In this document: positions 1 to 12,178 of the stretch, in pieces | Layout of the letters: each line of letters starts with the position of its first letter | Numbering within the stretch: the first letter of the stretch is position 1 | IMG/VR virus record: IMGVR_UViG_2778261086_000006 | Location: 1 to 12,178 of that record | DNA length: 12,178 bases | Strand: one strand, 5' to 3' | DNA from: a virus | Lineage: Duplodnaviria > Heunggongvirae > Uroviricota > Caudoviricetes | Notes under the pieces: generated by a model | Database searches by the model: none | The model's input: only the letters and a program-made list of their open reading frames with translations | What the model was told of the DNA's origin: nothing | Position numbers and translations under genes: made by a program

Positions 1-1362
1 ATGTTTAAACCGGAACTCCTTTCCCCGGCGGGAACGCTGAAAAATATGCGTTACGCTTTCGCTTATGGCGCAGATGCTGTTTATGCGGGCCAGCCGCGTT
101 ACTCCCTGCGTGTGCGCAACAACGAATTCAACCACGAAAATCTTCAGCTCGGCATCAATGAAGCCCACGCGCTGGGGAAAAAGTTTTATGTCGTGGTCAA
201 CATTGCACCGCACAACGCCAAGCTGAAAACCTTTATCCGTGACCTGAAACCGGTGGTGGAAATGGGGCCGGATGCGCTGATTATGTCCGATCCAGGGCTG
301 ATTATGCTGGTGCGTGAGCACTTCCCTGAAATGCCGATCCACCTCTCGGTGCAGGCTAACGCCGTAAACTGGGCGACGGTGAAATTCTGGCAGCAAATGG
401 GCCTGACCCGCGTGATCCTCTCTCGCGAGCTGTCGCTGGAAGAGATTGAAGAGATCCGCAATCAGGTGCCGGATATGGAGATCGAGATCTTCGTTCACGG
501 CGCACTGTGCATGGCCTACTCCGGTCGCTGCCTGCTCTCTGGCTATATCAACAAGCGCGATCCGAACCAGGGTACCTGCACCAACGCCTGCCGCTGGGAG
601 TACAACGTCCAGGAAGGGAAAGAAGATGACGTTGGCAACATCGTACACAAGTACGAGCCGATTCCGGTGCAAAATGTTGAGCCGACGCTGGGTATCGGCG
701 CGCCAACCGACAAAGTGTTTATGATCGAAGAAGCCCAGCGTCCGGGCGAGTATATGACCGCGTTTGAAGATGAGCACGGCACTTACATCATGAACTCGAA
801 AGATCTGCGCGCCATCGCCCATGTAGAACGCCTGACCAAAATGGGCGTGCATTCGCTGAAAATCGAAGGCCGTACTAAATCTTTCTACTATTGCGCACGC
901 ACCGCACAGGTTTACCGTAAAGCTATCGATGACGCCGCTGCGGGCAAACCGTTCGATACCAGCCTGCTGGAAACTCTGGAAGGTCTGGCGCATCGTGGCT
1001 ATACCGAAGGTTTCCTGCGTCGTCATACTCACGACGATTATCAGAACTACGAATACGGTTATTCAGTTTCTGACCGCCAGCAGTTTGTTGGTGAGTTTAC
1101 CGGTGAGCGCAAGGGGGACCTCGCGGCGGTAGCGGTGAAAAATAAATTCTCCGTTGGCGACAGCCTTGAGCTGATGACGCCGCAAGGCAACATTAACTTT
1201 ACCCTTGAGCACATGGAAAACGCCATAGGTGAAGCGATGCCGGTCGCACCAGGCGATGGTTATACTGTGTGGCTCCCGGTCCCGCAGGATCTTGAGCTCA
1301 ATTACGCTCTGCTGATGCGTAATTTCTCCGGGGAAACCACGCGTAACCCACACGGTAAGTGA
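1..1362 (+). CDS. yegQ: Peptidase U32-family protein YegQ (TrhP-like), complete
   Basis: ATG at 1, TGA at 1360-1362, 453 aa. Contains the U32 signature E-I-F-V-H-G-A-L-C-M-A-Y-S-G-R-C (nt ~481-531). Length and sequence match my recollection of E. coli YegQ, which lies next to cyaR. Confidence 0.88.
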   Translation: MFKPELLSPAGTLKNMRYAFAYGADAVYAGQPRYSLRVRNNEFNHENLQLGINEAHALGKKFYVVVNIAPHNAKLKTFIRDLKPVVEMGPDALIMSDPGLIMLVREHFPEMPIHLSVQANAVNWATVKFWQQMGLTRVILSRELSLEEIEEIRNQVPDMEIEIFVHGALCMAYSGRCLLSGYINKRDPNQGTCTNACRWEYNVQEGKEDDVGNIVHKYEPIPVQNVEPTLGIGAPTDKVFMIEEAQRPGEYMTAFEDEHGTYIMNSKDLRAIAHVERLTKMGVHSLKIEGRTKSFYYCARTAQVYRKAIDDAAAGKPFDTSLLETLEGLAHRGYTEGFLRRHTHDDYQNYEYGYSVSDRQQFVGEFTGERKGDLAAVAVKNKFSVGDSLELMTPQGNINFTLEHMENAIGEAMPVAPGDGYTVWLPVPQDLELNYALLMRNFSGETTRNPHGK

Positions 1363-1396
1363 TTAATTTCGATTATTTTTCCCGGATGGAAAATTC

Positions 1397-1439
1397 TTAG
1401 AAACCGATCACATACAGCTGCATTTATTAAGGTTATCAT
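1397..1439 (+). promoter_or_regulatory. Candidate CyaR promoter: imperfect CRP-like site (TTAGA-N6-TCACA, 1397-1412) and -10-like TATCAT (1434-1439)
   Basis: Read directly upstream of the sRNA 5' end at 1447. CyaR is known to be CRP-activated. Left half-site is a poor match, so the exact site is uncertain. Confidence 0.35.
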
Positions 1440-1446
1440 CCGTTTC

Positions 1447-1533
1447 GCTGAAAAACATAACCCATAAAATGCTAGCTGTACCAGGAACCACCTCCTTAGC
1501 CTGTGTAATCTCCCTTACACGGGCTTATTTTTT
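1447..1533 (+). ncRNA. cyaR: CyaR (RyeE) Hfq-dependent small RNA
   Basis: Sequence GCTGAAAAACATAACCCATAAAATGCTAGCTGTACCAGGAACCACCTCCTTAGCCTGTGTAATCTCCCTTACACGGGCTTATTTTTT matches my memory of E. coli CyaR. It ends in a GC stem plus T6 intrinsic terminator and sits right after yegQ as in K-12. Confidence 0.85.
1507..1533. repeat. attL core: 27-bp direct repeat AATCTCCCTTACACGGGCTTATTTTTT, overlapping the CyaR terminator
   Basis: Identical 27-mer recurs at 11665-11691. Left copy is preceded by bacterial cyaR sequence, right copy by phage int-distal sequence. Confidence 0.85.
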
Positions 1534-1597
1534 ACGTACAACAAATTGAAATAAAAGGATTTATTTCTGGTCACGTCCACACATTGACCACATCGAC

Positions 1598-1622
1598 AAA
1601 AAAGCCCCTCGACTGAGGGGCT
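1598..1622 (-). terminator. Rho-independent terminator downstream of ogr (minus strand); potentially bidirectional
   Basis: Perfect stem AGCCCCTC/GAGGGGCT (1603-1610 / 1615-1622) with 4-nt loop GACT. On the minus strand it is followed by U6 (A-run 1598-1603 on +). On the + strand it is followed by TTCTGTTT. Confidence 0.6.
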
Positions 1623-1634
1623 TTCTGTTTGTAA

Positions 1635-1853
1635 TTACATCCACATAATTTGCTGCCCTGACGGCAACGGGTGTGGCCTTACGGCGTGGACTTCTCCCGG
1701 CTTCACGATGTATCGCTGTACCGACTCATAAGTGATGAACGTGGCGCTGCAATTCACGTTCTGACACTGGTGATAACGCTCTTTTGTCGTGTCAGTGATA
1801 TAGCGGCTTGTACGCGCATGTGCGGCATGCTGGCATAAAGGACAATGAAACAT
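1635..1853 (-). CDS. ogr: Ogr, zinc-finger late-gene transcriptional activator (72 aa)
   Basis: ATG at 1851-1853 with GGAAGAGGTG Shine-Dalgarno upstream. Protein MFHCPLCQHAAHARTSRYITDTTKERYHQCQNVNCSATF... has the Cys motif and matches recalled P2 Ogr / K-12 OgrK. The 93-aa track ORF is an upstream extension and unlikely to be real. Confidence 0.9.
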   Translation of the reverse strand: MFHCPLCQHAAHARTSRYITDTTKERYHQCQNVNCSATFITYESVQRYIVKPGEVHAVRPHPLPSGQQIMWM

Positions 1854-1934
1854 CGCGAGCACCTCTTCCGGTTTTATTGATGGTGCCATTTTAGTTAATT
1901 TATCCTTATAAAACAAACAGATAAAATAAAAACA

Positions 1935-3098
1935 TCACTCATCATCTTCTGTTTCGTACTCCACATCAGAAAGCCTGACCTCAAGCTCTAAAGACGTCGT
2001 GAAGCCGCTATTATTCAGAAAATGTGTCACCTTAGTGATTGTCCAGTCCTGCTCGTCTATGACGCGCTTAAAGCCTGACACTTTAACCGGTGTTTCCGTG
2101 TAAATATCTGCCCGACCGGTAGCCAGGCTGATGGAGAACTCCGCCACACCCCGTTGCAGTTTATCCCACTTCGCCTGAGCGGCGCGCATGGCCTGCGCTT
2201 TCGTGGCATATACCGTAGTCAGGGCAAAAACGTTGTCAGCCTCACCGGCCATGTATTCACCTTCGCGCGCTTCCGGTACTTTTGGCGCTTTCTTCTGCGT
2301 GACCGGTTTCGCTTTCGGGTGCTCCAGTGCGCGCAGGTGTTTTTCTTTCTTTTTGCGTTTCAGTTTTACCTTCTGCTTTTGCGGCTTCGGGTCTTTGGTG
2401 TGTAACCACTTTGCCGTTACGCCGGTGTAAGCTCCACGGTCAGCAATCGCAAAATGATGACGGTCGCCGTCGCTGCGGGTGATGGTAATCTGCGGGATTT
2501 TTTTACCGCTGGCCGTCACCCCCTGCCCCGCTTTGAGAAACAACAGTTTTCCCATTTTTACCGACACCTCACCGCCGTTGCGTTCTGCAAGACGGGTCAG
2601 GAATTTCGCATCAGACTCCTGCGACTGGTCGATGTGCGGGATTTTAATTCCGGCCAGTGACGGAGCGACACTGGCTTCCAGCCTGTTACGGGAGGCTATC
2701 GCTTCAACAATCGCACCGAGTGTGGTGTCATGCCAGGAGCCTTCCCGGCGGGAATTGAGCGTCCCGCGAAAATCTGCACTCCGGGCGCGGATGGTGACCA
2801 CATCCGGCGCGCCCCGGTGTTCAACCTCATCAACGGTGAATTTCCCTTTGCATACCAGGGCAAAACCTTTCCAGCCGATATACACCGTCAGGACAGCGCC
2901 ACGAACCGGTAGCCCGACCTGCCCGTCGGCATCGTTCAGTTCAATATCAAGCTGGTCAGCCTCAAAGCCCCGGTTATCCGTCAGGGTCATGCTCATCAGA
3001 CGGTCGCTGATATTGCCGGTAATATCCCTGCTGTCGAGCATCAGCATGTAATCCGGCGTCAGCGTACTGCCTGCATCAAATGTCAGTGCATCCAGCAT
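1935..3098 (-). CDS. D: Tail protein D (P2 gpD-like), 387 aa
   Basis: ATG at 3096-3098 overlapping the U stop. Length and position (between U and ogr) match P2 gpD as recalled. Confidence 0.82.
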   Translation of the reverse strand: MLDALTFDAGSTLTPDYMLMLDSRDITGNISDRLMSMTLTDNRGFEADQLDIELNDADGQVGLPVRGAVLTVYIGWKGFALVCKGKFTVDEVEHRGAPDVVTIRARSADFRGTLNSRREGSWHDTTLGAIVEAIASRNRLEASVAPSLAGIKIPHIDQSQESDAKFLTRLAERNGGEVSVKMGKLLFLKAGQGVTASGKKIPQITITRSDGDRHHFAIADRGAYTGVTAKWLHTKDPKPQKQKVKLKRKKKEKHLRALEHPKAKPVTQKKAPKVPEAREGEYMAGEADNVFALTTVYATKAQAMRAAQAKWDKLQRGVAEFSISLATGRADIYTETPVKVSGFKRVIDEQDWTITKVTHFLNNSGFTTSLELEVRLSDVEYETEDDE

Positions 3099-3577
3099 TA
3101 TCCCGCCCCCGTCATCCCCGTGAATCTGGTCGCCATACTGCCAGCTTTACCGATGAGCGATTCCGCCTGTTTACCGATATCGCCATAAAGCGCGGCCAGT
3201 GATTCATCAACGCGGGTGAGCGACAGCGTAAAATCAATTTTCCGGGGTGTGCCGTCTGCAAAGAAAATACTCCCTGTTTCACTTACCCTGCTGATGACAT
3301 ACATGCCGTAAATCATGCCGGTGCCATCCAGCAACGGCCACGCCCGGCCTTCATCTGCCATCAGCCTGAGCGTGGTCATCGTCAGCTTTCCGCCGGTCAG
3401 TTCGGGATAAAGCACACCGGCAAGCGTCATGTTTTCCTCACCCACACCGAGAAACTGGTAGGCCTCCCGTTTACCGATACGGGAATTTGACGGCCAGCGA
3501 TAATCTGATTCACGCTGCATGGTCTGGTGTGGCAGCGTCTGGCGCATAAAAACAAACATACCTAACGCGAGCATCAT
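3098..3577 (-). CDS. U: Tail protein U (P2 gpU-like), 159 aa
   Basis: ATG at 3575-3577. Protein MMLALGMFVFMRQTLPHQ... Length and synteny match P2 gpU as recalled. Confidence 0.8.
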   Translation of the reverse strand: MMLALGMFVFMRQTLPHQTMQRESDYRWPSNSRIGKREAYQFLGVGEENMTLAGVLYPELTGGKLTMTTLRLMADEGRAWPLLDGTGMIYGMYVISRVSETGSIFFADGTPRKIDFTLSLTRVDESLAALYGDIGKQAESLIGKAGSMATRFTGMTGAG

Positions 3578-3591
3578 TTTTCGTCACCTCC

Positions 3592-3903
3592 TTAACCGTC
3601 ATGCATCATGCTGGCACGGGCGCGCGCACGTTTATCCCGCTCGTATTTTTCGAGCGCATCCTGTAACTGGCGGTCAAGCTGTGTCCCCGGCGCAGTACCA
3701 CCCGTCAGGCTGATGTGATATTCGTTTTTACTCTGGTCCACATAAGAGCGGCCAGCCGGTGCCGTAACCGGCTGATAAGCCTGATAACCTGCATAAGAGC
3801 TGGTCGCCGGAATATAACCACCGGTGCCATACGTGGCGGCATGAGTCCTTGCGGCGGTCTGGTCAAGTGTGTCTGACTCTTTGTTGATAACCGTCGCGGC
3901 GAA
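3592..3903 (-). pseudogene. 3' fragment of tape-measure gene T (C-terminal ~103 codons, no start codon)
   Basis: Minus-strand frame translates to ...[41 protein letters not shown]...YHISLTGGTAPGTQLDRQLQDALEKYERDKRARARASMMHDG then TAA (3592-3594), directly upstream of U as in P2. The frame is closed by stops beyond 3904 and has no initiator. Confidence 0.55.
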
Positions 3904-4645
3904 TCAGCGTTGTGACGCCAGACTCGTTCAACAGGTCAGCATCGGTGCCGGACTCCTGCAAATCCCAGAATACAGATGCGCTGATGCCGGTAACACCGTT
4001 TACCCCGACGTTGGACAGCGTTTTATGCCAGCCCTGCTCCTGGTCGATTTTAGCGCGCAGACCCAGCGCACGGGCGGTGGCATACGCGGTGGCGGTGGTA
4101 CTGGTGACCGTATCCCATGCGAGGAAAACCGTAATTACATCGCCGTCGTAAGCCACACCACCGGCGAACAGGTAGCCGGGAATGTCCCGGGTAATGTTCA
4201 GGCCAATAAGATGACGGCTTGCAGGTTTGGCATCAGCAATCAGCCGTTCCATTTCCTGATACATTGCCTCTGTGATGCCACTTTCCAGTACACCAATATC
4301 AAGCCGGAAGGTGCCGGGCGGGTCACTGTTTTCCCACCACTCCGTCACGTTGATGAGATAGCCGAGCGGCTCCACCACACGCCGGATTGCACCGATAGTG
4401 CCCTTATGACAGTGGATGAAATAGGCATCGCGGATAACGGCGCGTTTTGTCGCTTCCGGCCACTTTTCATCCCACCTGTCGACCGAAAACGCCCACGCCA
4501 GCCACGGCAGCAGATTTGCCGGACAGGTATCCGGGTTCCACAGTTCACGAATCCTGACCGGCGTTTTTTCAATTTCCGCACAGGCTTTTGCGGCGGCAAC
4601 TTCAAGCGGTGATGAGCCGGTCGGCAGCAGTCGCGAATCACTCAT
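3863..4645 (-). CDS. Baseplate protein I-like ORF with aberrant C-terminal extension (260 aa); probable deletion-fusion product
   Basis: ATG at 4643-4645 overlaps the J stop. The N-terminal part ([26 protein letters not shown]...) resembles P2 gpI, which I recall as ~176 aa. This ORF instead runs 260 codons and reads into the T-fragment region in a different frame. Confidence 0.55.
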
Positions 4646-5546
4646 CCGAGCCTCCGGTCACGACGCGGTATTCGGTACAGAAAGACGCCTGCGTACTGTT
4701 GAGCACGATGTCGGCCAGCGGTGCAGTCAGTTCGACACGCTGCACGCCTTCCACATGCAAAGCGGCATAAATGGCAGACAGACGGATGTCGCGCCCCAGC
4801 CGGTGCTGTGCCGTGATGTACGCTTCCAGTTTTTTCACGGCAGCAGCGCGTATGGGTTCGCTTTCGGGACCAGGGTAAAGGTAAAGCGTGGCGTTTATCT
4901 GGTATTCAACGATGGCGGCAGACTGCACGGTCACGCGGTCGGCCACCGGCCTGACGTCCTCGCCATTAAGGGCGTTACGCACCACCGCCAGCAGGTCTTC
5001 GGATGCGACACCGTTATTTTCACGTGACAGCACAGAGATGGTGACGCAGGCCGGAGACGGACTGGTTACAGAAATATCCGCGACACGCCCGTCGGCACTG
5101 CGACCATGATACTGATAGGCCCCCACCGACCCGGCGACGCTTAAACCTTCAAACGCCTGCTGAATACGCAGACGATAATCCGTGTCAGATTCCATCACTG
5201 CCGGTGTCGGCGGGATGGTCGAATCATCTTCCAGGGTGATAATCAGGCGCGTGGTGTTGTAATTGGCACCAATCACATCAAGGTCATTACCGGCAGCACA
5301 GGCCAGCATCACCGCCCGTGCGGCCTCATTCACACGCTGACGCCAGATAAGCTCACGATAAGCATTTTCCTCCAGCAGTTTGACGAGAGGCTCAGATTCC
5401 AGCGTCAGGGTACGGGCGACCGCCTCCTGCTGGTCTTCCGGGTAAAGGGAAATCAGTGTCGCCTTGCGTTCGGCAAGAATGGTTTCAAAGTCCAGCTCCT
5501 CAACCACATCCGGTGCGGGTAGCTGGTTCAGGTCGATAATCGGCAT
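4638..5546 (-). CDS. J: Baseplate protein J (P2 gpJ-like), 302 aa
   Basis: ATG at 5544-5546. Length and synteny W-J-I match P2. Confidence 0.82.
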
Positions 5547-5550
5547 GGTT

Positions 5551-5898
5551 TCAACTCACAGGAATGGTTAACGAAAGTGGCTGGCCGGTGTCGTTGTGCT
5601 GGCCGGTTAACGTGACCGTCATTCGCCCGTCAAAACTGCGCTCAGTGGTGACGGATGACAGGGTGACGCGGGGTTCCCATTTCAGCACCGCCATGTAACA
5701 GGCGACCTTAATCTGCAACTCAAGCGCCGGGGTCTGCGGCTGGTCAATCATTGACGCCAGCAACGAGCCGTAATCACGACGCATCACCCGCGAGCCGACC
5801 GGTGTGCGCAGGATATCGCCGATACTCTGGCTGATATGCTCAAGGTCAGTGACAGTCAGGCCATCACTGCGATTCATTCCGAGATAACGCGCAGTCAT
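5551..5898 (-). CDS. W: Baseplate protein W (gp25-like), 115 aa
   Basis: ATG at 5896-5898 overlapping the V stop (TGA 5895-5897). Length and synteny match P2 gpW. Confidence 0.82.
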   Translation of the reverse strand: MTARYLGMNRSDGLTVTDLEHISQSIGDILRTPVGSRVMRRDYGSLLASMIDQPQTPALELQIKVACYMAVLKWEPRVTLSSVTTERSFDGRMTVTLTGQHNDTGQPLSLTIPVS

Positions 5899-6530
5899 AG
5901 AGGTCCCCCTGTTGTGCCGCCGCTGTCGCCGGGGTGTTTATGGGTATGAAGTACCTTACCGTTTGATGAGAGTTCACCGCCGGTGTGTTCAATGTTGCCG
6001 CGCATCGTCCCGCCCTTCTGCACTTCCAGCGTGCCGGTAATCAGCCTGTTGGTGCAGACCACCTCCGGTGTGTCCAGGGTGACGCGGGTTGATGCTTTCA
6101 CCATGACCACCGGCACCGTGGCGGTAACAGAATCAGAAGCCGTCACGCTGGCCGTTTTAATTCCGCTTACCGTAAGTGCACTGGTTTCGGGTTCATACTC
6201 AATCACCGCCCCGTCAGGGAAACGGATATGCAGGGCATCCGCCGACGCAGACGGCGGAGGGTTATCGCCGGAATAAATCCCCGGCAGAACAAACGCCGTG
6301 TCAAGTTCACCGCCCACGGCCAGAATCAGCACCTGCTCCCCCACGGAAGGTGCCCACCATGTGCACGAACGTCCGGCGCGATGGGTCAGCCACTGAAGCC
6401 AGTCGGTGCACATGCCGCCGGTCTGCACACGGCAGCGACCGGCTTTAAGGTTGGTTTCGACGACAAGGCCGGTACGAATCATGTTGCGCAGTGCGCGCGC
6501 GAGTTCCTGAATATTTGCGAGAGTGTTCAT
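5895..6530 (-). CDS. V: Baseplate spike/hub protein V (P2 gpV-like), 211 aa
   Basis: ATG at 6528-6530 gives MNTLANIQELARALRNMIRTGLVVETNLKAGRCRVQTGG... The track ORF start at 6566 is a TTG 12 codons upstream and is less likely. Confidence 0.78.
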   Translation of the reverse strand: MNTLANIQELARALRNMIRTGLVVETNLKAGRCRVQTGGMCTDWLQWLTHRAGRSCTWWAPSVGEQVLILAVGGELDTAFVLPGIYSGDNPPPSASADALHIRFPDGAVIEYEPETSALTVSGIKTASVTASDSVTATVPVVMVKASTRVTLDTPEVVCTNRLITGTLEVQKGGTMRGNIEHTGGELSSNGKVLHTHKHPGDSGGTTGGPL

Positions 6531-6607
6531 AACGGGAAGGATGCCGCTGGACGATACCAGCAGCAATCATGGAGGATTCTGTCAGCTGTGACACAACATA
6601 ATAAATA

Positions 6608-7363
6608 TTAGTTGTAGCACTTCTCTATAATCTTCATACACTCCTCATGAGCTAAATCATGGCTGTCAAATTCTTTATTAAAAAAGAAGAAAAACGCCTT
6701 CTTAACCTGAGGCATTTCAATAAAAATAAATTCATCAACCTTATGAAAGAAATGAAAACTCTTGTTTGATGTTTCAAAAACCATCAAAGAATTATGTTTT
6801 TTATCCTTCCATTTCGACATCAGATTGCGTCGCGATTTTCGTATAATCCTGAAGACATCCCCCGGCGTCGTATCGACATTCCCCCAAAACATTGCAACCG
6901 GAAAGTTTGCAAGGAACGGGATATAATCACCACCTTTATACCTGAGAAAGCGGTTCCGCAAATCCATTAATTGCAACTTAAAACCCATGTATTGCAACCA
7001 CCATATGATGCAATCATACTCATAATCTGTTAACTCCTCTCCCCTCTTTTCCGTAAGAAATTTCTTCAGGTTATACTCAAACACTCCCAGCAAATCAGAA
7101 TTGCACACTCTGCATGCTGGTACAGTGGCTTTAATGTAATGAGTTGACTGATTATTCTTTTTATTAATTAAAGATTTTTCAGTATTTGACTCAAAGGCCC
7201 ACTGAGGAATAATGTGCTCACGAGTAATATCGTCAGAACTCCCGCATAACACACATATATCAGCATTATGGTCAACAATAATACAATCCATAACTTTCTT
7301 TTGAGAGTGCTTTACTCTTTTTCTCAAAATAGAAAACTTTTCATCCATAAACACCCGTCTCAT
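6608..7363 (-). CDS. AT-rich cargo (moron) ORF, 251 aa: N-terminal Cys4 zinc-finger HNH-type nuclease motif plus ~160-aa C-terminal region of unknown function
   Basis: ATG at 7361-7363 overlaps the S stop (ATGA); TAA at 6608-6610. A sampled 60 nt (6621-6680) is ~32% GC against visibly GC-richer flanks. Motif C-V-L-C-G...D-D-I-T-R-E-H-I-I-P-Q-W-A-F...C-R-V-C-N fits the CxxC...DH-I-x-P...N...CxxC pattern of HNH nucleases. It occupies the S-V slot where P2 carries its non-essential moron orf30. Confidence 0.7.
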   Translation of the reverse strand: MRRVFMDEKFSILRKRVKHSQKKVMDCIIVDHNADICVLCGSSDDITREHIIPQWAFESNTEKSLINKKNNQSTHYIKATVPACRVCNSDLLGVFEYNLKKFLTEKRGEELTDYEYDCIIWWLQYMGFKLQLMDLRNRFLRYKGGDYIPFLANFPVAMFWGNVDTTPGDVFRIIRKSRRNLMSKWKDKKHNSLMVFETSNKSFHFFHKVDEFIFIEMPQVKKAFFFFFNKEFDSHDLAHEECMKIIEKCYN

Positions 7364-7818
7364 ATAACATCTTTCGATAGAATCACTAATAACTCCCTTT
7401 CTATCAATTGTATAGATTCCTTGTCAAAACCAAATAACTCACGAACAGGATATTCCACCACAGCACTATTACGCCCCGGCTTATCCTTAAGCCCTAATTG
7501 ATGTACTCGCGCAATTCGTTGCACTCCGCTGGCAAACTCCACCACCGCCGCACTCTCGCTACCTGTTGCTTTCATAAACCGGTTAGTGCGTAATTTCACA
7601 AACATTTCCCGCTTTATCCGGCCTTTCTTATTTCGCACTGGCTGGTTTTTTCTCGGTACATACGGCGTACCATCTGGGCCTTTTTGTAATTTAATTCGCT
7701 GCTGCTGGCGCTGGCGCAGTTTCTTCGCAATATCTACCGCCAGTCGCCGACGCCCTGACGGTGACAGCGACTCAATCAGTCCGGTCATCCGGTCTTCAAA
7801 ACGCTTAAACTCATTCAT
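7360..7818 (-). CDS. S: Tail completion protein S-like, 152 aa, with AT-rich 3' end
   Basis: ATG at 7816-7818 overlaps the R stop. Position between R and V matches P2 gpS. The last ~25 codons (nt ~7364-7440) are AT-rich, unlike the rest of the gene. Confidence 0.68.
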   Translation of the reverse strand: MNEFKRFEDRMTGLIESLSPSGRRRLAVDIAKKLRQRQQQRIKLQKGPDGTPYVPRKNQPVRNKKGRIKREMFVKLRTNRFMKATGSESAAVVEFASGVQRIARVHQLGLKDKPGRNSAVVEYPVRELFGFDKESIQLIERELLVILSKDVI

Positions 7819-8278
7819 CCCACTTGCTCACCAGTTCGCCATTGATATAAAGCTCCACCGGGCGGGTGACCGGCTCCGGCGGCGGAGGTTCCGGGATATT
7901 CTTCACATGCAGCGCACCGTCAACCTCACTGACCAGCGTGCGCTCGGTCAGCATCAGGCTGATACTGATATCAAAGCTGCTGTCATTGTTGATGTCTGCA
8001 TAAAATGTGAAGCCCTTTTTCTGGCCTTCGTCGGTGGTCATGATGTCGGGCTGATTTTCCCGCAGCCACGCCAGCACCGGCACGATGAGCAGGTCAAAAT
8101 CACCGGTAAAGTCGGTCACAATCACATTGAGCGTGTAACGCTTTTCGAATGACAGCGACGCCGCCAGTGTGGAGGCAATACTCCCGTTATCCACGAATAT
8201 CCGCAGCATCTCGGGGTTAGTTTTCAGCACCGTGACGGCATCAGTCAGCGCCCTGCGCAGGCTGTCGGGTTTGAGCAT
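7811..8278 (-). CDS. R: Tail completion protein R (P2 gpR-like), 155 aa
   Basis: ATG at 8276-8278 with AGGAAG Shine-Dalgarno 7 nt upstream. Length and sequence match recalled P2 gpR. Confidence 0.8.
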   Translation of the reverse strand: MLKPDSLRRALTDAVTVLKTNPEMLRIFVDNGSIASTLAASLSFEKRYTLNVIVTDFTGDFDLLIVPVLAWLRENQPDIMTTDEGQKKGFTFYADINNDSSFDISISLMLTERTLVSEVDGALHVKNIPEPPPPEPVTRPVELYINGELVSKWDE

Positions 8279-8340
8279 CGTTTTCTTCCTGACAGTGTTT
8301 AATCATTTTTACCTGGCTGGCACAACGTGCCAGCGCGTTC

Positions 8341-8502
8341 TCAAGCTGCCGGATAAGCTGCACGACGGGCAGCAGGTATTGGCGCGTCACACTCTTCGCA
8401 AACCAGCGCAGAAACACCGCAATGCTTTACCCTTGCCGCGTTAATCTGGCGCTCCAGTAATTCAGCCTGTTGTTCCTGAATAAAATCCACGTTGTCCGGC
8501 AT
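8341..8502 (-). CDS. Small TraR/DksA-type zinc-finger-like ORF (orf82 position), 53 codons, apparently truncated
   Basis: ATG at 8500-8502 overlaps the orf81-like stop. Translation MPDNVDFIQEQQAELLERQINAARVKHCGVSALVCEECDAPIPAARRAAYPAA then TGA. The CEEC-x-IPxxRR knuckle is present but the second CxxC is missing; downstream in-frame sequence (..TLCQPGKND) looks like a degenerate remnant. Confidence 0.4.
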   Translation of the reverse strand: MPDNVDFIQEQQAELLERQINAARVKHCGVSALVCEECDAPIPAARRAAYPAA

Positions 8503-8804
8503 TACCAGCTCCTTTTGTCGTTCAGTTTCTTAAATTCATCAGCGCAATAGCTGGCAATTTCAGCCGTTACTTTTGTCAGTTCGTCTACGGAGGAAATTTG
8601 CTTGTGAAATACAGCGCGTTTCACAAGTAAATTGACCACATCAGACAGGAGGTTTAATTCGTTCTGATAAATCGCGATAACAGATTCAGTTATTTCGTGT
8701 TTTTCTTTATCAAGCCTAAGTTGAATAAGAGACAAATCGCCATTTTTCATAACGGAGATTTTTAAGGCATTGTTCAGTAATACAATTGAACGAGAACAGG
8801 ACAT
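8502..8804 (-). CDS. P2 early-operon orf81-like protein (100 aa from ATG)
   Basis: ATG at 8802-8804 (the track start at 8807 is a TTG). Lies between the orf80-like and orf82-like ORFs as in the P2 early operon. Confidence 0.65.
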   Translation of the reverse strand: MSCSRSIVLLNNALKISVMKNGDLSLIQLRLDKEKHEITESVIAIYQNELNLLSDVVNLLVKRAVFHKQISSVDELTKVTAEIASYCADEFKKLNDKRSW

Positions 8805-9028
8805 CAAAGCACCTCCCCGCGAGACAATCCGATATTGTGAAATTTTTCCGACTCCTGACTGAGCAGCTCGACTATCTCCACGCGGGATAACTCCGCCTTT
8901 GTGATGTGGCGAATCATGGCGTCAAGATGAGAAGAAAAGCGCGTCGCTGCATCGGCCTGTGCTTCGGTTCTGGCCTGTTGCAGCAGTAATGCGTATTTAC
9001 CGCACTGATTTTCAGAAACTATATGCAT
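8804..9028 (-). CDS. P2 early-operon orf80-like protein, 74 aa
   Basis: ATG at 9026-9028. Position directly downstream of B in the early operon. Confidence 0.65.
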
Positions 9029-9091
9029 GACTTTCTCCAGGCAAAAAGAAGCCCCGCACGATTAAGTGCGTTAAAAACTCTGGTTAATTAT

Positions 9092-9592
9092 TTAATGCAG
9101 ATATTGCTCTGGTTTAACCGACGTCAGAATTGTCGGTGCATACTCAAACAGGCTGAATAATTCACGTAATGCACGGAATAAAGCATCACGCCAGTAACAT
9201 GACTCTTCATTAATTCGCCAGTATGGCTGGTTGAATTCTTTTTCAGTCAATCCGGCATGCATAAATAAAGTACGACGCTGACTGACTGTTAAAAAACTAA
9301 TATATGCATACTCACTTGCGCCAACCTGACGGCGTTTTGAGAATGCACCACGCAATTCATCAATTGCACATACCAGTCGTTCACGTTCGACGTCGTTCAT
9401 TTCTTCAAAACACATCGTTGCGTGACGCTGTTTTAACTGAGCATGGAAGCAAACCGTTAACCGTTCGCGCTCCATCATCTGATTATAATAATCGCATGTC
9501 TCCTGCCAGCGAGGGACGGCCAGATGCTTACCAATTATCCGGCGCATAGCTGCTGGCTGTTTTTCAACGAGATTGAGCGTCATCACTGTCAT
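9092..9592 (-). CDS. B: Replication protein B (P2 gpB-like), 166 aa
   Basis: ATG at 9590-9592 overlapping the orf78-like stop. Length and synteny cox-orf78-B match P2. Confidence 0.8.
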   Translation of the reverse strand: MTVMTLNLVEKQPAAMRRIIGKHLAVPRWQETCDYYNQMMERERLTVCFHAQLKQRHATMCFEEMNDVERERLVCAIDELRGAFSKRRQVGASEYAYISFLTVSQRRTLFMHAGLTEKEFNQPYWRINEESCYWRDALFRALRELFSLFEYAPTILTSVKPEQYLH

Positions 9593-9759
9593 TTCCAGAC
9601 CCTCCGGCTTTTCAGAAAGGTCAGAGCCTTTTTTAACGGACTCTGTTTTTTGGTGCGGATAATGATTCCCTTACGCCCCTTACCGTGGGTGATGGTGAAG
9701 TCAATCGCCCTGGGGCTTTCGTTACGCAATAACTGAGCAATACAACGAGGCTCATTCAT
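9589..9759 (-). CDS. P2 orf78-like small early protein (56 aa from ATG)
   Basis: ATG at 9757-9759 preceded by AAGGAGAA Shine-Dalgarno. The track's 64-aa version starts at a GTG (9781-9783) inside cox. Confidence 0.6.
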   Translation of the reverse strand: MNEPRCIAQLLRNESPRAIDFTITHGKGRKGIIIRTKKQSPLKKALTFLKSRRVWK

Positions 9760-9769
9760 ACGGTTCTCC

Positions 9770-10045
9770 TTAACGTGGTTCACCGAGACCTAACCACATC
9801 AACCAGCCGTCACGAATCTCTTTAGGACGGCTTTCATAAGCCAGTTTTAGTCCGTTATTCCATGCCGGAAGGTATACCCAATATTCACCAGCACGCCCCG
9901 ATACTGACTGAGGGTCAGTAATCTCAATAACTGGTAATTTCCCTTTCTCAATCATGCCCCTTACAGCTCTTGGAGTTTTACCAATGAGTTTTGCAAACTC
10001 CTGATAAGGCACGGCATCAGTCACGCTTACAAGCTGTCTATTCAT
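9770..10045 (-). CDS. cox: Cox, excisionase and repressor of Pc (91 aa)
   Basis: ATG at 10043-10045. Protein ...DAVPYQEFAKLIGK...GKLPVIEITDPQSVSGRAGEYWVYLPAWNNGLKLAYESRPKEIRDGWLMWLGLGEPR matches recalled P2 Cox. Divergent from C. Confidence 0.9.
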   Translation of the reverse strand: MNRQLVSVTDAVPYQEFAKLIGKTPRAVRGMIEKGKLPVIEITDPQSVSGRAGEYWVYLPAWNNGLKLAYESRPKEIRDGWLMWLGLGEPR

Positions 10046-10166
10046 CTGCTACGATTCTCCCTTAGTGCTTCTAATGGCTCCTAATGGCTAATTATTGCCT
10101 AAAAGGATAACTCCAGAAGCACAACATTTCACACTATCAGCAAGAAATTACGCAATCGGAGTAATT
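10046..10166. promoter_or_regulatory. Pe/Pc immunity-switch region between cox and C, with tandem 10-bp direct repeats CTAATGGCTC / CTAATGGCTA (10071-10090)
   Basis: Divergent cox and C genes flank this 121-bp region. The tandem repeat is read directly and is a candidate operator (C and Cox both recognise direct repeats in P2). Promoter hexamers not mapped. Confidence 0.5.
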
Positions 10167-10466
10167 ATGTCAATAGACGTTTCGGAGAAGTTGAAGCTAA
10201 TCCGTGAATCTGAAAGGTTAAACCGTAAAGAATTCAGTGAATTAACTGGTGTAGCCTACAGCTCACTTTCGAGCTATGAGAGCCGGTCAAAAAACGCTGG
10301 AGTTGAAGCCATAATGAAGGTCTTACAACATCCCAGATTTACTAAATATACTTTGTGGTTCATGACTGATCAGGTAGCTCCAGAAGCCGGGCAAATTGCG
10401 CCCGCTCTCGCACACTTTGGGCAAAACGAAACAACGTCGCCCCACTCCGGTCAAAAGACTGGTTAA
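10167..10466 (+). CDS. C: Immunity repressor C (P2 C-like), 99 aa
   Basis: ATG at 10167-10169 with GGAG 6 nt upstream. The C-terminal half (...FTKYTLWFMTDQVAPEAGQIAPALAHFGQNETTSPHSGQKTG) matches recalled P2 C. The 123-aa track ORF starts at an upstream TTG. Confidence 0.88.
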   Translation: MSIDVSEKLKLIRESERLNRKEFSELTGVAYSSLSSYESRSKNAGVEAIMKVLQHPRFTKYTLWFMTDQVAPEAGQIAPALAHFGQNETTSPHSGQKTG

Positions 10467-10581
10467 CAATTTATCGTGAATATATTCATCACAAGTGCCT
10501 ACTATTGGTGGCTAAATTTCAGCCACCACGAAAAAAGCGATTAGTAGTAGCAAAAAAAAGTACCACTCGGAGGGTTTTCTG

Positions 10582-11595
10582 ATGGCAATCAAAAAACTCG
10601 ATGATGGTCGATATGAAGTGGACATCCGCCCTACTGGACGTAACGGAAAACGCATCCGTAGGAAGTTTGATAAGAAAAGCGAAGCTGTCGCTTTCGAAAA
10701 ATACACGTTGTACAACCACCACAATAAAGAATGGCTATCAAAACCAACAGACAAACGACGTCTGTCGGAACTGACACAGATCTGGTGGGATTTAAAGGGT
10801 AAACACGAAGAGCATGGGAAATCTAATCTTGGAAAAATTGAAATCTTCACAAAAATAACGAATGACCCATGCGCATTTCAAATCACGAAATCCCTTATCA
10901 GCCAGTACTGCGCCACCCGAAGAAGTCAGGGTATTAAACCTTCGAGTATCAATCGTGATTTAACATGTATTAGCGGCATGTTTACAGCCCTGATTGAAGC
11001 GGAGTTATTCTTTGGTGAGCACCCTATCAGAGGGACAAAGAGGCTTAAGGAGGAAAAACCAGAAACAGGCTATCTCACACAGGAAGAAATTGCCTTACTG
11101 CTTGCAGCACTTGACGGCGACAACAAAAAGATTGCGATTCTTTGCCTGAGTACAGGAGCACGTTGGGGAGAAGCAGCTCGTTTGAAAGCAGAAAATATCA
11201 TCCATAACCGCGTCACGTTTGTTAAAACGAAAACAAACAAACCACGCACCGTCCCGATCTCAGAGGCTGTTGCCAAAATGATCGCGGATAACAAACGAGG
11301 TTTTTTATTCCCTGATGCTGATTACCCTCGCTTCAGACGAACAATGAAAGCAATAAAACCGGATTTGCCAATGGGGCAAGCCACACATGCACTAAGGCAC
11401 AGCTTTGCCACTCATTTCATGATTAATGGAGGAAGTATTATCACGCTACAACGGATACTAGGTCACACGCGGATTGAGCAAACTATGGTTTACGCTCATT
11501 TTGCGCCAGAGTACCTTCAGGACGCCATTTCTCTTAATCCGCTAAGAGGTGGTACTGAGGCCGAGAGTGTCCACACAGTGTCCACAGTAGAGTAA
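10582..11595 (+). CDS. int: Tyrosine integrase (P2 Int-like), 337 aa
   Basis: ATG at 10582-10584 with GGAGGG upstream. C-terminal catalytic motifs present (..ATHALRHSFATHF...LGHTRIEQTMVYAHF). Lies next to attR downstream of C, as in P2. Confidence 0.9.
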   Translation: MAIKKLDDGRYEVDIRPTGRNGKRIRRKFDKKSEAVAFEKYTLYNHHNKEWLSKPTDKRRLSELTQIWWDLKGKHEEHGKSNLGKIEIFTKITNDPCAFQITKSLISQYCATRRSQGIKPSSINRDLTCISGMFTALIEAELFFGEHPIRGTKRLKEEKPETGYLTQEEIALLLAALDGDNKKIAILCLSTGARWGEAARLKAENIIHNRVTFVKTKTNKPRTVPISEAVAKMIADNKRGFLFPDADYPRFRRTMKAIKPDLPMGQATHALRHSFATHFMINGGSIITLQRILGHTRIEQTMVYAHFAPEYLQDAISLNPLRGGTEAESVHTVSTVE

Positions 11596-11664
11596 CGTTT
11601 AAGGGCTTTCAGTGGTAATTTATGCCGCTCAAACCCGCATTGTACCGTTGAAAGCCCCTACTGG

Positions 11665-11691
11665 TGACACCCTAAATCTCCCTTACACGGG
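11665..11691. repeat. attR core: second copy of the 27-bp direct repeat, followed by one extra T
   Basis: Identical to 1507-1533. Located ~70 bp downstream of the int stop. Confidence 0.85.
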
Positions 11692-11765
11692 CTTATTTTT
11701 TTATGCATAAGCCCTATCTCTGGTAACCGTCTTCCATTGACCACATCGATAGAATCCTCCTTCAT

Positions 11766-11798
11766 AGCACGATGCCTTTCACTTATCGGCATCGTGCT
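11766..11798. other. Perfect 11-bp inverted repeat AGCACGATGCC...GGCATCGTGCT (hairpin, 11-nt loop) between attR and yegR
   Basis: Read directly. Lies downstream of the yegR stop on the minus strand but has no U-run on either strand, so it is not a canonical intrinsic terminator. Confidence 0.3.
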
Positions 11799-11860
11799 CC
11801 CACAGGTTCCGGCTACGCACAGCCAGAACGCGCATATTTGACGCTTACCAAAAAATATTC

Positions 11861-12178
11861 TCACTCTCCACATTTGAATGTCAGACGAGCGACACCATGT
11901 AATCCTACACCTTCTGTCTTCAGCTCAACTATTTGCATTTTTTTGCCCTGAGTAACACAGAAATGAGTTGCATCATTTTTTACTATATTTTCTGCACCAG
12001 ATATTCTACCCCTGGCTAAAGAAGCTTCGGCTTCGGTGTAGTATTGGTTATCGAGTTTACGCTGAATATTACTTTTATATGCAAGACCAAATTTACCGAT
12101 ACTTGTCTCATCATTATGCACAGCACAACCAGACATAATAAAAATACTAATTAATGATATAGCAGCTATCTTTTTCAT
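11861..12178 (-). CDS. yegR: YegR-like small lipoprotein, 105 aa, complete
   Basis: ATG at 12176-12178 (window edge). N-terminal signal peptide with lipobox (IMSGC). Length and position match E. coli yegR near cyaR/ogrK. Confidence 0.8.
   Translation of the reverse strand: MKKIAAISLISIFIMSGCAVHNDETSIGKFGLAYKSNIQRKLDNQYYTEAEASLARGRISGAENIVKNDATHFCVTQGKKMQIVELKTEGVGLHGVARLTFKCGE

Follow-up and report, generated by a model that had tools for sequence, protein, structure and literature searches.

The 3' end of cyaR is the preferred, classic attachment site of P2 in E. coli; phage 186 integrates in tRNA-Ile, and Fels-2 and SopE-phi in ssrA. At the cyaR site, the annotation of K-12 shows a "cryptic prophage PR-X" with ogrK and yegZ. 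P2 attachment sites and a P2-like remnant in K-12 are, judging by its title, the subject of a paper from 1992 (cited in PMC3091744). The sRNA gene, under its name ryeE, has been referred to in E. coli as "previously known to be targeted by phages" (PMC3603311), the general principle being that a phage copy of the 3' end of an RNA gene lets the gene survive integration (PMC3448106, PMC3603311).

The window, i.e., the whole stretch of 12,178 nt analysed here (virus record IMGVR_UViG_2778261086_000006), stems from a draft assembly, contig NNXC01000020.1. Between two attachment cores, it carries a P2 (Peduovirus) prophage of 10.2 kb, which, with a probability of roughly 95%, was integrated at the cyaR site by Int and was then turned into a silent remnant by three deletions. 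This is an already-known situation, namely a broken-down P2 in the classic cyaR (ryeE) landing site, and we found nothing contradicting integration at this site. The features of the locus are compiled in Table 1.

Scanning of the whole window revealed exactly two plus-strand copies of the 27-mer AATCTCCCTTACACGGGCTTATTTTTT, at 1507-1533 and 11675-11701, and no further copies with up to three mismatches; 200 dinucleotide shuffles yielded 0 matches. The repeat described in the first-pass annotation is therefore real and exact and its left copy was correctly located, but the right copy had been placed 10 nt too far to the left (at 11665-11691), so that the element ends at 11701 and not at 11691. 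Identity extends over exactly 27 nt, the adjacent bases being different (T/A on the left, A/T on the right). The same annotation had read the repeat as an attL/attR signature of site-specific integration, and this is borne out by the 27-mer being the annotated attP core of P2 (NC_001895, 24356-24382) and by the attP which can be rebuilt from the window ends: joining 11540-11701 to 1534-1640 gives the attP of P2 with one mismatch, the attR side being 100% identical over 162 nt and the attL side showing the mismatch within 134 nt. Thus, attL and attR have their core in common with attP, as in Campbell-type integration.

The IHF and Cox sites, the P and P' arms and the ogr terminator were located by alignment with P2 and its annotation; across the P, P', IHF and Cox sites, a single base departs from P2. 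A motif scan detected TGTGGACG (1574-1581) and TGTGGTCA (1585-1592) in the P arm as well as two copies of TGTGGACA (11568-11575 and 11579-11586) in the P' arm, all on the reverse strand. For arm-type Int sites, the consensus tgTGGaCa has been reported (PMC3448106). With two such sites per arm on both sides of the core, the locus has the layout of a P2-type integrase.

CyaR matches the Rfam model RF00112 in full length (1445-1530, model positions 1-85 of 85) with 100.7 bits (gathering score 47), and window positions 1363-1533 are identical to K-12. Folding and a terminator scan placed its terminator at 1498-1525, a hairpin with an 11-bp stem, followed by the U-tail TATTTTTT up to 1533. Of this terminator, the left 27-mer provides the loop, the entire 3' arm and the U-tail as well as the final 2 nt of the 5' arm. 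As had been proposed, the phage-derived copy reconstitutes the 3' end of the sRNA, leaving CyaR full-length and intact across attL. The attR core begins 80 nt past the int stop codon at 11595, and upstream of it neither cyaR-like sequence (local score 6 versus a shuffle mean of 7.8) nor a CyaR match, even at E<=10, was detected.

Table 1. Coordinates of predicted and annotated features of the locus (window positions).
Feature	Position	Strand	Remarks
cyaR (CyaR/RyeE sRNA), intact	1445..1533	+	Rfam RF00112 and terminator hairpin
attL core, 27 nt	1507..1533	+	left repeat copy; 3' half of CyaR terminator
IHF site, P2 attP left arm (P2 24324-24357)	1532..1565	.	one substitution vs P2 at 1542
P arm (P2 24293-24320)	1569..1596	.	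100% P2 identity; two arm-type Int sites
Terminator of ogr and F operon (P2 24265-24288)	1601..1624	.	P2 annotation and terminator scan
ogr, late-gene activator, 72 aa	1635..1853	-	aligned residues all as in P2 Ogr
D, tail protein, intact	1935..3098	-	99.0% aa identity to P2
U, tail protein, intact	3098..3577	-	97.5% aa identity to P2
T (tape measure), last 300 nt	3592..3891	-	deletion 1 junction at 3889-3891
Chimeric ORF, 260 aa	3863..4645	-	gpI residues 1-173 in frame with FI fragment
FI (tail sheath), 243-nt internal fragment (P2 18220-18462)	3889..4131	-	
J, baseplate, intact	4638..5546	-	98.3% aa identity to P2
W, baseplate wedge, intact	5551..5898	-	99.1% aa identity to P2
V, baseplate spike, intact	5895..6530	-	95.7% aa identity to P2
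Non-P2 HNH-like gene, 251 aa, AT-rich (about 35-40% GC)	6608..7363	-	S/V slot (P2 orf30); HNH-like motif
S, tail completion	7360..7818	-	54.7% aa identity to P2 S overall
R, tail terminator, intact	7811..8278	-	98.1% aa identity to P2
orf82, truncated (DksA/TraR-like zinc finger), 53/74 aa	8341..8502	-	
orf81 and orf80 homologues, intact	8502..9028	-	
B, replication helper	9092..9592	-	99.4% aa identity to P2
orf78	9589..9759	-	100% aa identity to P2
cox, excision factor and Pc repressor, 91 aa	9770..10045	-	83.5% aa identity to P2 Cox
C immunity repressor, 99 aa	10167..10466	+	64.6% aa identity to P2 C
int, tyrosine integrase	10582..11595	+	337/337 aa identical to P2 Int
P' arm (P2 24470-24496)	11561..11587	.	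100% P2 identity; two arm-type Int sites
Cox-binding region of attP/attR (P2 24399-24472)	11585..11658	.	100% P2 identity
attR core, 27 nt	11675..11701	+	right repeat copy; no hairpin by itself (fold z-score -0.19)

In its interior, the element is collinear with P2 in five blocks separated by three gaps, at 90-97% nucleotide identity, and searches with PHROG and Pfam assigned the genes to the P2 families ogr, D, U, I, J, W, V, S, R, orf80-82, B, cox, C and int. Gene content and order are hence P2-like (Peduovirus), in line with the P2-like remnant suspected from the sequence at first reading. Nucleotide similarity of S to P2 ends at 7594, which means that the 3' part of this gene was replaced. 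The chimeric ORF combines the Pfam domains Tail_P2_I and Phage_sheath_1, its gpI part being aligned to gpI of P2. Where P2 carries orf30 between S and V, an unrelated HNH-like gene is found here; it also occurs in phage R18C and belongs to a conserved family with invariant HNH-type residues, and a comparison with known defence families using PADLOC gave no match (E = 0.028).

Compared with P2, about 23 kb are missing, lost by three deletions at short, imperfect homologies of 3 to about 11 nt. Deletion 1 (junction AAC at 3889-3891) took P2 18463-21997 with the 3' part of FI, the tube gene, E and most of T; deletion 2 (junction at about 4117-4131) removed P2 12722-18219, comprising H, G, fun(Z) and the 5' part of FI. 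Deletion 3 (junction 8345-8355) joined P2 27705 to 8378 and removed about 14.3 kb, comprising the 3' end of orf82, orf83, A and ori, orf91, tin and old as well as cos, Q, P, O, N, M, L, X, Y, K, lysA and most of lysB/C. Neither a cos-like 19-mer with up to four mismatches nor ori sequence is left in the window. Without A and ori the remnant cannot replicate, without cos, terminase and capsid genes it cannot be packaged, and the loss of sheath, tube, tape measure and fibres precludes a tail, as the loss of the lysis genes precludes lysis. Lacking the full replication, packaging (cos, P, M, Q), capsid, lysis and tail set of a viable phage, the element is a defective remnant and not a functional prophage.

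A large early-to-late deletion with identical P2 endpoints was also observed in an unrelated remnant carrying a different integrase, and in a third remnant the endpoint is 4 nt off. The endpoints of all three remnants adjoin the hairpin of the O-operon attenuator, which may point to a hot spot for deletions near this attenuator that disarms P2 prophages.

The course of events was most probably as follows. A temperate P2-type phage (Peduovirus) entered via Int by recombination of the 27-nt attP core with an identical attB core in the cyaR terminator, this attB core consisting of the loop, the 3' stem arm and the U-tail. Since the cores of attP and attB do not differ, cyaR is restored to the last base in attL, and attR receives a spare half-terminator next to int. 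Afterwards, about 23 kb were lost by the three illegitimate deletions; this order, integration before deletions, is inferred. The process left a module for recombination that is intact, made up of Int and Cox, the two cores and the binding sites (P, P', IHF, Cox), together with C, Ogr, some baseplate and tail-completion genes and the one non-P2 HNH-like gene.

Int and Cox together with IHF could, judging from this module, still cut the element out; unable to replicate, the excised DNA would then be lost. Cox is annotated in the P2 record as needed for excision, and the same combination of cox, int and att in the full-length prophage vB_EcoM-720R8 supports such competence; yet, with Cox at 83.5% identity to P2 and its binding DNA at 100%, we can only infer it. 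The C repressor may still confer immunity to phages of the same immunity type.

A domesticated element under selection, retained for C immunity and for an anti-phage or selfish HNH-like gene and purged of lethal functions, appears rather improbable. Some features would suit it: the 17 or so kept ORFs outside the junctions are uninterrupted, several being at least 98% identical to P2 proteins, precisely lysis, replication and capsid genes were removed, the switch module (9700-10600) matches the full-length 720R8 at 100%, and the HNH-like family is conserved in its HNH-type residues. Recent deletions, however, would equally leave the ORFs intact, the kept tail genes build nothing without sheath, tube and tape measure, and the HNH-like cargo matches no known defence family in PADLOC. 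Moreover, the exact structure is found in one assembly only and, therefore, shows no sign of spread or long retention.

Very unlikely is a prophage that is truly full length, the three deletions being errors of a short-read draft assembly, such as jumps between two P2-like prophages of one genome. In its favour, the I::FI fusion protein was found on just one contig, the draft contig analysed here, among 153 billion gene positions, and the complete E. coli genomes contain no such compact structure. But the junctions unite non-homologous P2 positions, without repeats and with a homology far below the k-mer sizes of assemblers, and deletion 3 recurs with the same P2 endpoints in the assembly of an independent sample (L015). 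In addition, the contig continues over 71.7 kb with normal host genes on both sides, and differing P2 remnants occupy the same site elsewhere. A satellite-like or tailocin-like derivative mobilised or expressed via a P2 helper, to which the kept int, cox, ogr and both att sites and a size near that of satellite P4 might point, is effectively refuted by the absence of cos and structural genes, by the missing ori and by all genes found being ordinary P2 genes. A P4-like, helper-dependent element would carry cos and P4-type helper-exploitation genes, both of which are absent; as to an R-type tailocin, FI is cut to 243 nt and T to 300 nt, and FII, E, H and G are absent, so that, with sheath, tube, tape measure and fibres missing, none can form.

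The preferred reading, an integrated and then deleted P2-type prophage, agrees with the occupancy of the site across E. coli. An empty allele with a single 27-mer, demanded by the first-pass annotation as a check, is present in strain CFSAN061761, to which the joined flanks align without interruption over 977 nt at 100% identity. Both flanks lie within one place in 4,565 of the 5,426 complete E. coli genomes; an attL-type junction is seen in 1,129 of them and an attR-type junction (int-core-yegR) in 812, about 15%. Full-length or less-decayed prophages sit at the same site in the same orientation (L003; vB_EcoM-720R8), and other genomes harbour differently deleted P2 remnants at this cyaR site.

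In the host flank, 13 nt to the right of the core, 40 nt (11715-11754) resemble the P arm of P2 with 75% identity (local score 21; shuffles averaged 8.5 and reached at most 16) and include one TGTGGTCA motif at 11738-11745. All alleles compared, i.e., the empty one, K-12 and this window, contain this stretch, and a stable hairpin follows where P2 has the ogr terminator. Tentatively, the "unoccupied" site might be the fossil remains of an earlier P2-like prophage. The spacer between cyaR and yegR would then come from a phage, and the preferred attB of P2 would be a former attL that has been repeatedly reused.

The K-12 locus carries cyaR, the intact attL core and, as stated in the first-pass annotation, ogrK and a D fragment, the latter being a 219-nt piece (yegZ). 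Of the attR core, K-12 keeps only the last 18 nt, the first 9 nt being gone, as expected if one more deletion ran from D into attR. Like this element, PR-X has the attL core inside cyaR, followed by ogr and the 3' end of D (98% over window 1-2149); it retains about 0.63 kb of the phage, whereas the present element has its two cores, int and cox in intact form. Without int and the first 9 nt of attR, the K-12 remnant cannot recombine. Regarding the window as a less-decayed state of the K-12 locus holds for site and orientation, a single shared integration event being no more than possible: the 643 nt of shared phage DNA show 21 differences (3.3%), and the flanks differ by 1.7% on the left (yegQ) and 0% on the right.

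Prophage vB_EcoM-720R8 (ON470606) shares site and orientation, with yegR and yegS in the record, and is 99.7% identical to window 8345-11856, spanning switch, int and attR. Its genes for capsid, lysis and tail are retained, as is A, and its S/V slot is empty. The Peduovirus prophage of strain GIMC1405 also shares cyaR site and orientation, but reveals one large deletion with other endpoints and other accessory genes. P2 itself has the same 27-nt core, a 100% identical Int, a like gene order and orientation (ogr beside attL and int beside attR) and a rebuilt CyaR, whereas here C and Cox are of another immunity type and S diverges in its 3' part. As for the tRNA, tmRNA and sRNA 3'-end integrators 186, Fels-2 and SopE-phi, the target gene is restored by a phage-carried 3' end; unlike tRNA-type targets, the target here is the terminator of an Hfq-dependent sRNA, with an identity of just 27 nt.

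The 27-mer AATCTCCCTTACACGGGCTTATTTTTT occurs exactly twice in the window, at 1507-1533 and 11675-11701, both on the plus strand, in agreement with the direct 27-bp repeat reported in the first-pass annotation. The second copy, which had been placed at 11665-11691, sits 10 nt further to the right, and the element therefore ends at 11701; the annotation to use is a defective Peduovirus prophage at 1507-11701. Since the bases on either side differ between the two copies, the repeat is exactly 27 nt long. No third copy was found in the window when up to three mismatches were allowed, and none of 200 dinucleotide shuffles contained a match. The same 27-mer is annotated as attP in the RefSeq record of phage P2. 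Chance and transposon target-site duplication were both dismissed as origins: the repeat is the P2 attP core itself, and the arms adjoining it are those of P2.

The integrase is identical to P2 Int over 337/337 amino acids. The 162 nt that end with the attR core, within which lie the P' arm and the Cox-binding region, match P2 at 100%; the 134 nt rightward from the attL core, with the ogr terminator, P arm and IHF site, show one difference, at 1542. Arm-type Int motifs, whose consensus is tgTGGaCa (PMC3448106), are paired at 1574-1592 and 11568-11586. As both sides match P2 to within one base, joining the sequence left of attR to that right of attL in silico rebuilt P2 attP, so that the proposed reading of the repeats as attL and attR was borne out for cores and arms alike.

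CyaR/RyeE, the sole Rfam family above the gathering score in the window, was located at 1445-1530, where it matched the full model with 100.7 bits (threshold 47). According to folding and a terminator scan, its terminator is a hairpin with an 11-bp stem (1498-1525) and TATTTTTT after it. Of the 5' stem arm, the 27-mer includes the last two bases; the left copy, said at first to form the CyaR terminator, accordingly provides its loop, the entire 3' arm and the U-tail. Phages targeting tRNA genes often carry more extended homology left of the core. No tRNA or tmRNA target was detected in the window, and a longer cyaR homology in the phage was ruled out: left of the attR core the local alignment score against cyaR stayed below the shuffle mean, a permissive Rfam scan (E<=10) returned no CyaR match, and the attR copy on its own formed no hairpin (fold z = -0.19). 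The window illustrates how an sRNA terminator can serve as a phage landing site with the sRNA left undamaged.

The U-run of CyaR at attL (1533/1534) consists of six T followed by A, likewise in K-12, while the T-run at attR (11701/11702) and at the empty site has seven T, and the unoccupied site of Nissle is one T shorter. A small effect of this length difference on termination or Hfq binding is possible. At attR, and at the empty site too, the T-run is flanked by an inverted repeat of 8 bp made up of GGGCTTAT and ATAAGCCC (11689-11714). Overlapping the CyaR terminator in its 3' arm, this repeat could fold into an alternative hairpin of -10.5 kcal/mol.

A query for the empty site, made of window 1034-1533 joined to 11702-12178 with a single 27-mer, was compared with 5,426 complete E. 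coli genomes. Lack of such an allele would have refuted the first-pass reading; strain CFSAN061761, however, matched all 977 nt unbroken at 100% identity. Alignment of this allele with Nissle, K-12 and the two window junctions revealed a single core followed directly by TATGCATAAGCCC. Both flanks lie within one place in 4,565 of the 5,426 genomes. The attL-type junction, in which cyaR and the core are followed by the P arm and the end of ogr, was present in 1,129/5,426, and the attR-type junction, leading from the end of int through the core to the yegR side, in 812/5,426, from which we infer that about 15% of complete E. coli genomes have a P2-type int adjoining the site and that about 6% more, K-12 among them, retain the left end alone. 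With attP, attB, attL and attR all alignable, the window is a clean textbook example. In many genomes (Nissle ~1000-1170; ST131-type) an extra insertion of ~168 nt separates the att region from yegR; it is unrelated to the attachment core, which is single in those genomes.

Comparison of the interior with phage P2 (NC_001895) by blastn unveiled five collinear blocks separated by three losses and one foreign gene, listed in the table, and PHROG and Pfam scans agreed gene by gene with the P2 assignments; the original description as a P2-like prophage remnant stands. No cos-like or ori sequence is left in the window. A satellite was ruled out, as cos and structural genes are missing, and a tailocin likewise, given the missing structural genes.

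Prophage blocks, lost segments and cargo gene of the element compared with phage P2
Feature	Window position	P2 position	Strand	Content
Block 1	1507-3891	24382-21998		core, ogr, D, U, last 300 nt of T
Lost segment 1 (3.5 kb)	junction 3889-3891			FI 3' part, FII, E, E', most of T
Block 2	3889-4131	18462-18220		internal piece of sheath gene FI
Lost segment 2 (5.5 kb)	junction ~4117-4131			H, G, fun(Z), FI 5' part
Block 3	4117-6530	12721-10308		I, J, W, V
Non-P2 gene (251 aa)	6608-7363		-	S/V (P2 orf30) slot; AT-rich island ~6530-7600
Block 4	7594-8355	9139-8378		S 5' part, R, lysB/C end
Lost segment 3 (14.3 kb, across joined cos ends)	junction 8345-8355			orf82 3' end, orf83, A with ori, orf91, tin, old, cos, Q, P, O, N, M, L, X, Y, K, lysA, most of lysB/C
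Block 5	8345-11701	27705-24356		orf82 5' part, orf81, orf80, B, orf78, cox, C, int, core

The deletion junctions show imperfect homology of only 3 to ~11 nt, as would be expected of illegitimate recombination. The second deletion joins gpI residues 1-173 in frame to the sheath fragment, giving a 260-aa chimera, and the third cuts orf82 to 53/74 aa; neither the I::FI fusion ORF nor the truncated orf82 should be given as a gene in the annotation, both being deletion artefacts. The window is an exact substring of NNXC01000020.1, a 71.7-kb draft contig of GCA_002486895.1, and the deletions might in principle reflect misassembly, in line with the I::FI chimera occurring solely on this contig and the compact structure being found in 0/5,426 complete E. 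coli genomes. We consider this unlikely, since the junctions contain no repeats long enough to mislead an assembler and the third junction, with the same P2 endpoints, recurs in an independent sample.

That sample (SRR30296986) yielded a Logan contig with an unrelated remnant, bearing another integrase and repressor, in which the endpoints of deletion 3 (P2 27705 joined to 8378) are identical at 3306-3316. In the decayed P2 at cyaR of strain GIMC1405, the lysC-side endpoint (19909-19914 of that locus) is 4 nt off, and all three endpoints lie ~20 nt from the annotated O-operon attenuator hairpin. The recurrence could reflect either a hot spot or shared ancestry. A 29-mer spanning the deletion 3 junction was absent from IMG/VR and JGI metagenome contigs and was not in one piece in any of the 5,426 complete genomes.

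The foreign gene has a GC content of ~35-40% and belongs to a small family nearly confined to Enterobacterales; phage R18C has it as well, and so do 77-97 of the 5,426 complete E. coli genomes (~1.5%). Its product gave no Pfam match at E<=0.01, no defence-family match (PADLOC best only E = 0.028), nothing meaningful in a PDB sequence profile search and no PDB match at E<=0.001 or informative fold match by Foldseek. The invariant CxxC...EH...N...CxxCN residues of the family fit an HNH-type pattern, and weak, sub-threshold matches to Pfam HNH_5 were seen in 16/16 members examined. As the ATG overlaps the S stop codon and the adjoining 3' part of S has diverged from P2, a free-standing homing-type nuclease would be at least as good a fit as a defence gene. 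GIMC1405 (9568-11501 and 17761-18840 of its locus), another decayed P2 at the same site, carries other accessory genes: its S/V slot holds a GTP pyrophosphokinase gene, and its fun(Z) slot a DUF5677 gene together with a short recombinase gene. The different S/V genes of the two elements identify this slot as a variable cargo position.

Cox and the C repressor are 83.5% and only 64.6% identical to their P2 counterparts, which assigns the element to another immunity type. Its switch (9700-10600) is 100% and window 8345-11856 is 99.7% identical to Escherichia phage vB_EcoM-720R8, a full-length prophage whose record has yegR and yegS attached and which hence occupies the same site. Immunity of the source strain to P2-like phages with the 720R8 immunity type, though not to P2 itself, would be predicted. 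Integration follows the classic Campbell model: P2 Int, assisted by IHF, recombined attP with its identical counterpart in the terminator of cyaR, and the sRNA was restored because the phage has the same 27 nt; the deletions would have come afterwards, disarming the prophage. According to the P2 record annotation, Cox is required for excision. With int, cox and all cis sites intact, excision appears plausible, and a circle incapable of replication or packaging would presumably be lost.

Over 40 nt, the host flank at 11715-11754 is 75% identical to window 1562-1601, the P2 P arm; the local score is 21, where shuffles average 8.5 and reach at most 16. The flank includes one arm-type Int motif, TGTGGTCA, and a hairpin lies beyond it at 11766-11798. 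The same sequence was found at three other loci (L006, L005 of Nissle and L002), and the flank is present in unoccupied sites too. Judging by this resemblance, it may be the fossil of an older P2-like prophage end.

P2 integration at cyaR is correct and a feature of an already known kind, as follows from the P2 record, from a comparative study (PMC3603311) that describes E. coli ryeE, as cyaR was formerly called, as "previously known to be targeted by phages", and from a 1992 title, listed among the references of PMC3091744, on attachment sites of P2 and a P2-like remnant of K-12. New here is solely this deletion derivative, and its significance extends little beyond a correct annotation. Apart from the 10-nt slip, the initial observation was confirmed and its interpretation is supported. 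As background, E. coli B harbors a defective P2-like prophage, the source of P2 Hy dis.

In K-12, the MG1655 annotation lists cyaR, "cryptic prophage PR-X", ogrK and the pseudogene yegZ at the site, in agreement with the ogrK and D fragment named for this strain in the first-pass annotation. K-12 is 98% identical to window 1-2149 and 100% to 11684-12178; just the last 18 nt of its attR core are kept, fused to D sequence. A single deletion from D into attR would convert a prophage like this one to the K-12 remnant. The view of the window as a less-decayed state of the K-12 site holds for site and orientation, while a common integration event is at most possible: in the 643 nt of phage DNA that the two have in common, 21 positions differ (3.3%), compared to 1.7% in yegQ and 0% in the right flank. 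At this site the element represents an intermediate stage, with full-length P2 prophages on one side of it and the 0.6-kb remnant of K-12 on the other.
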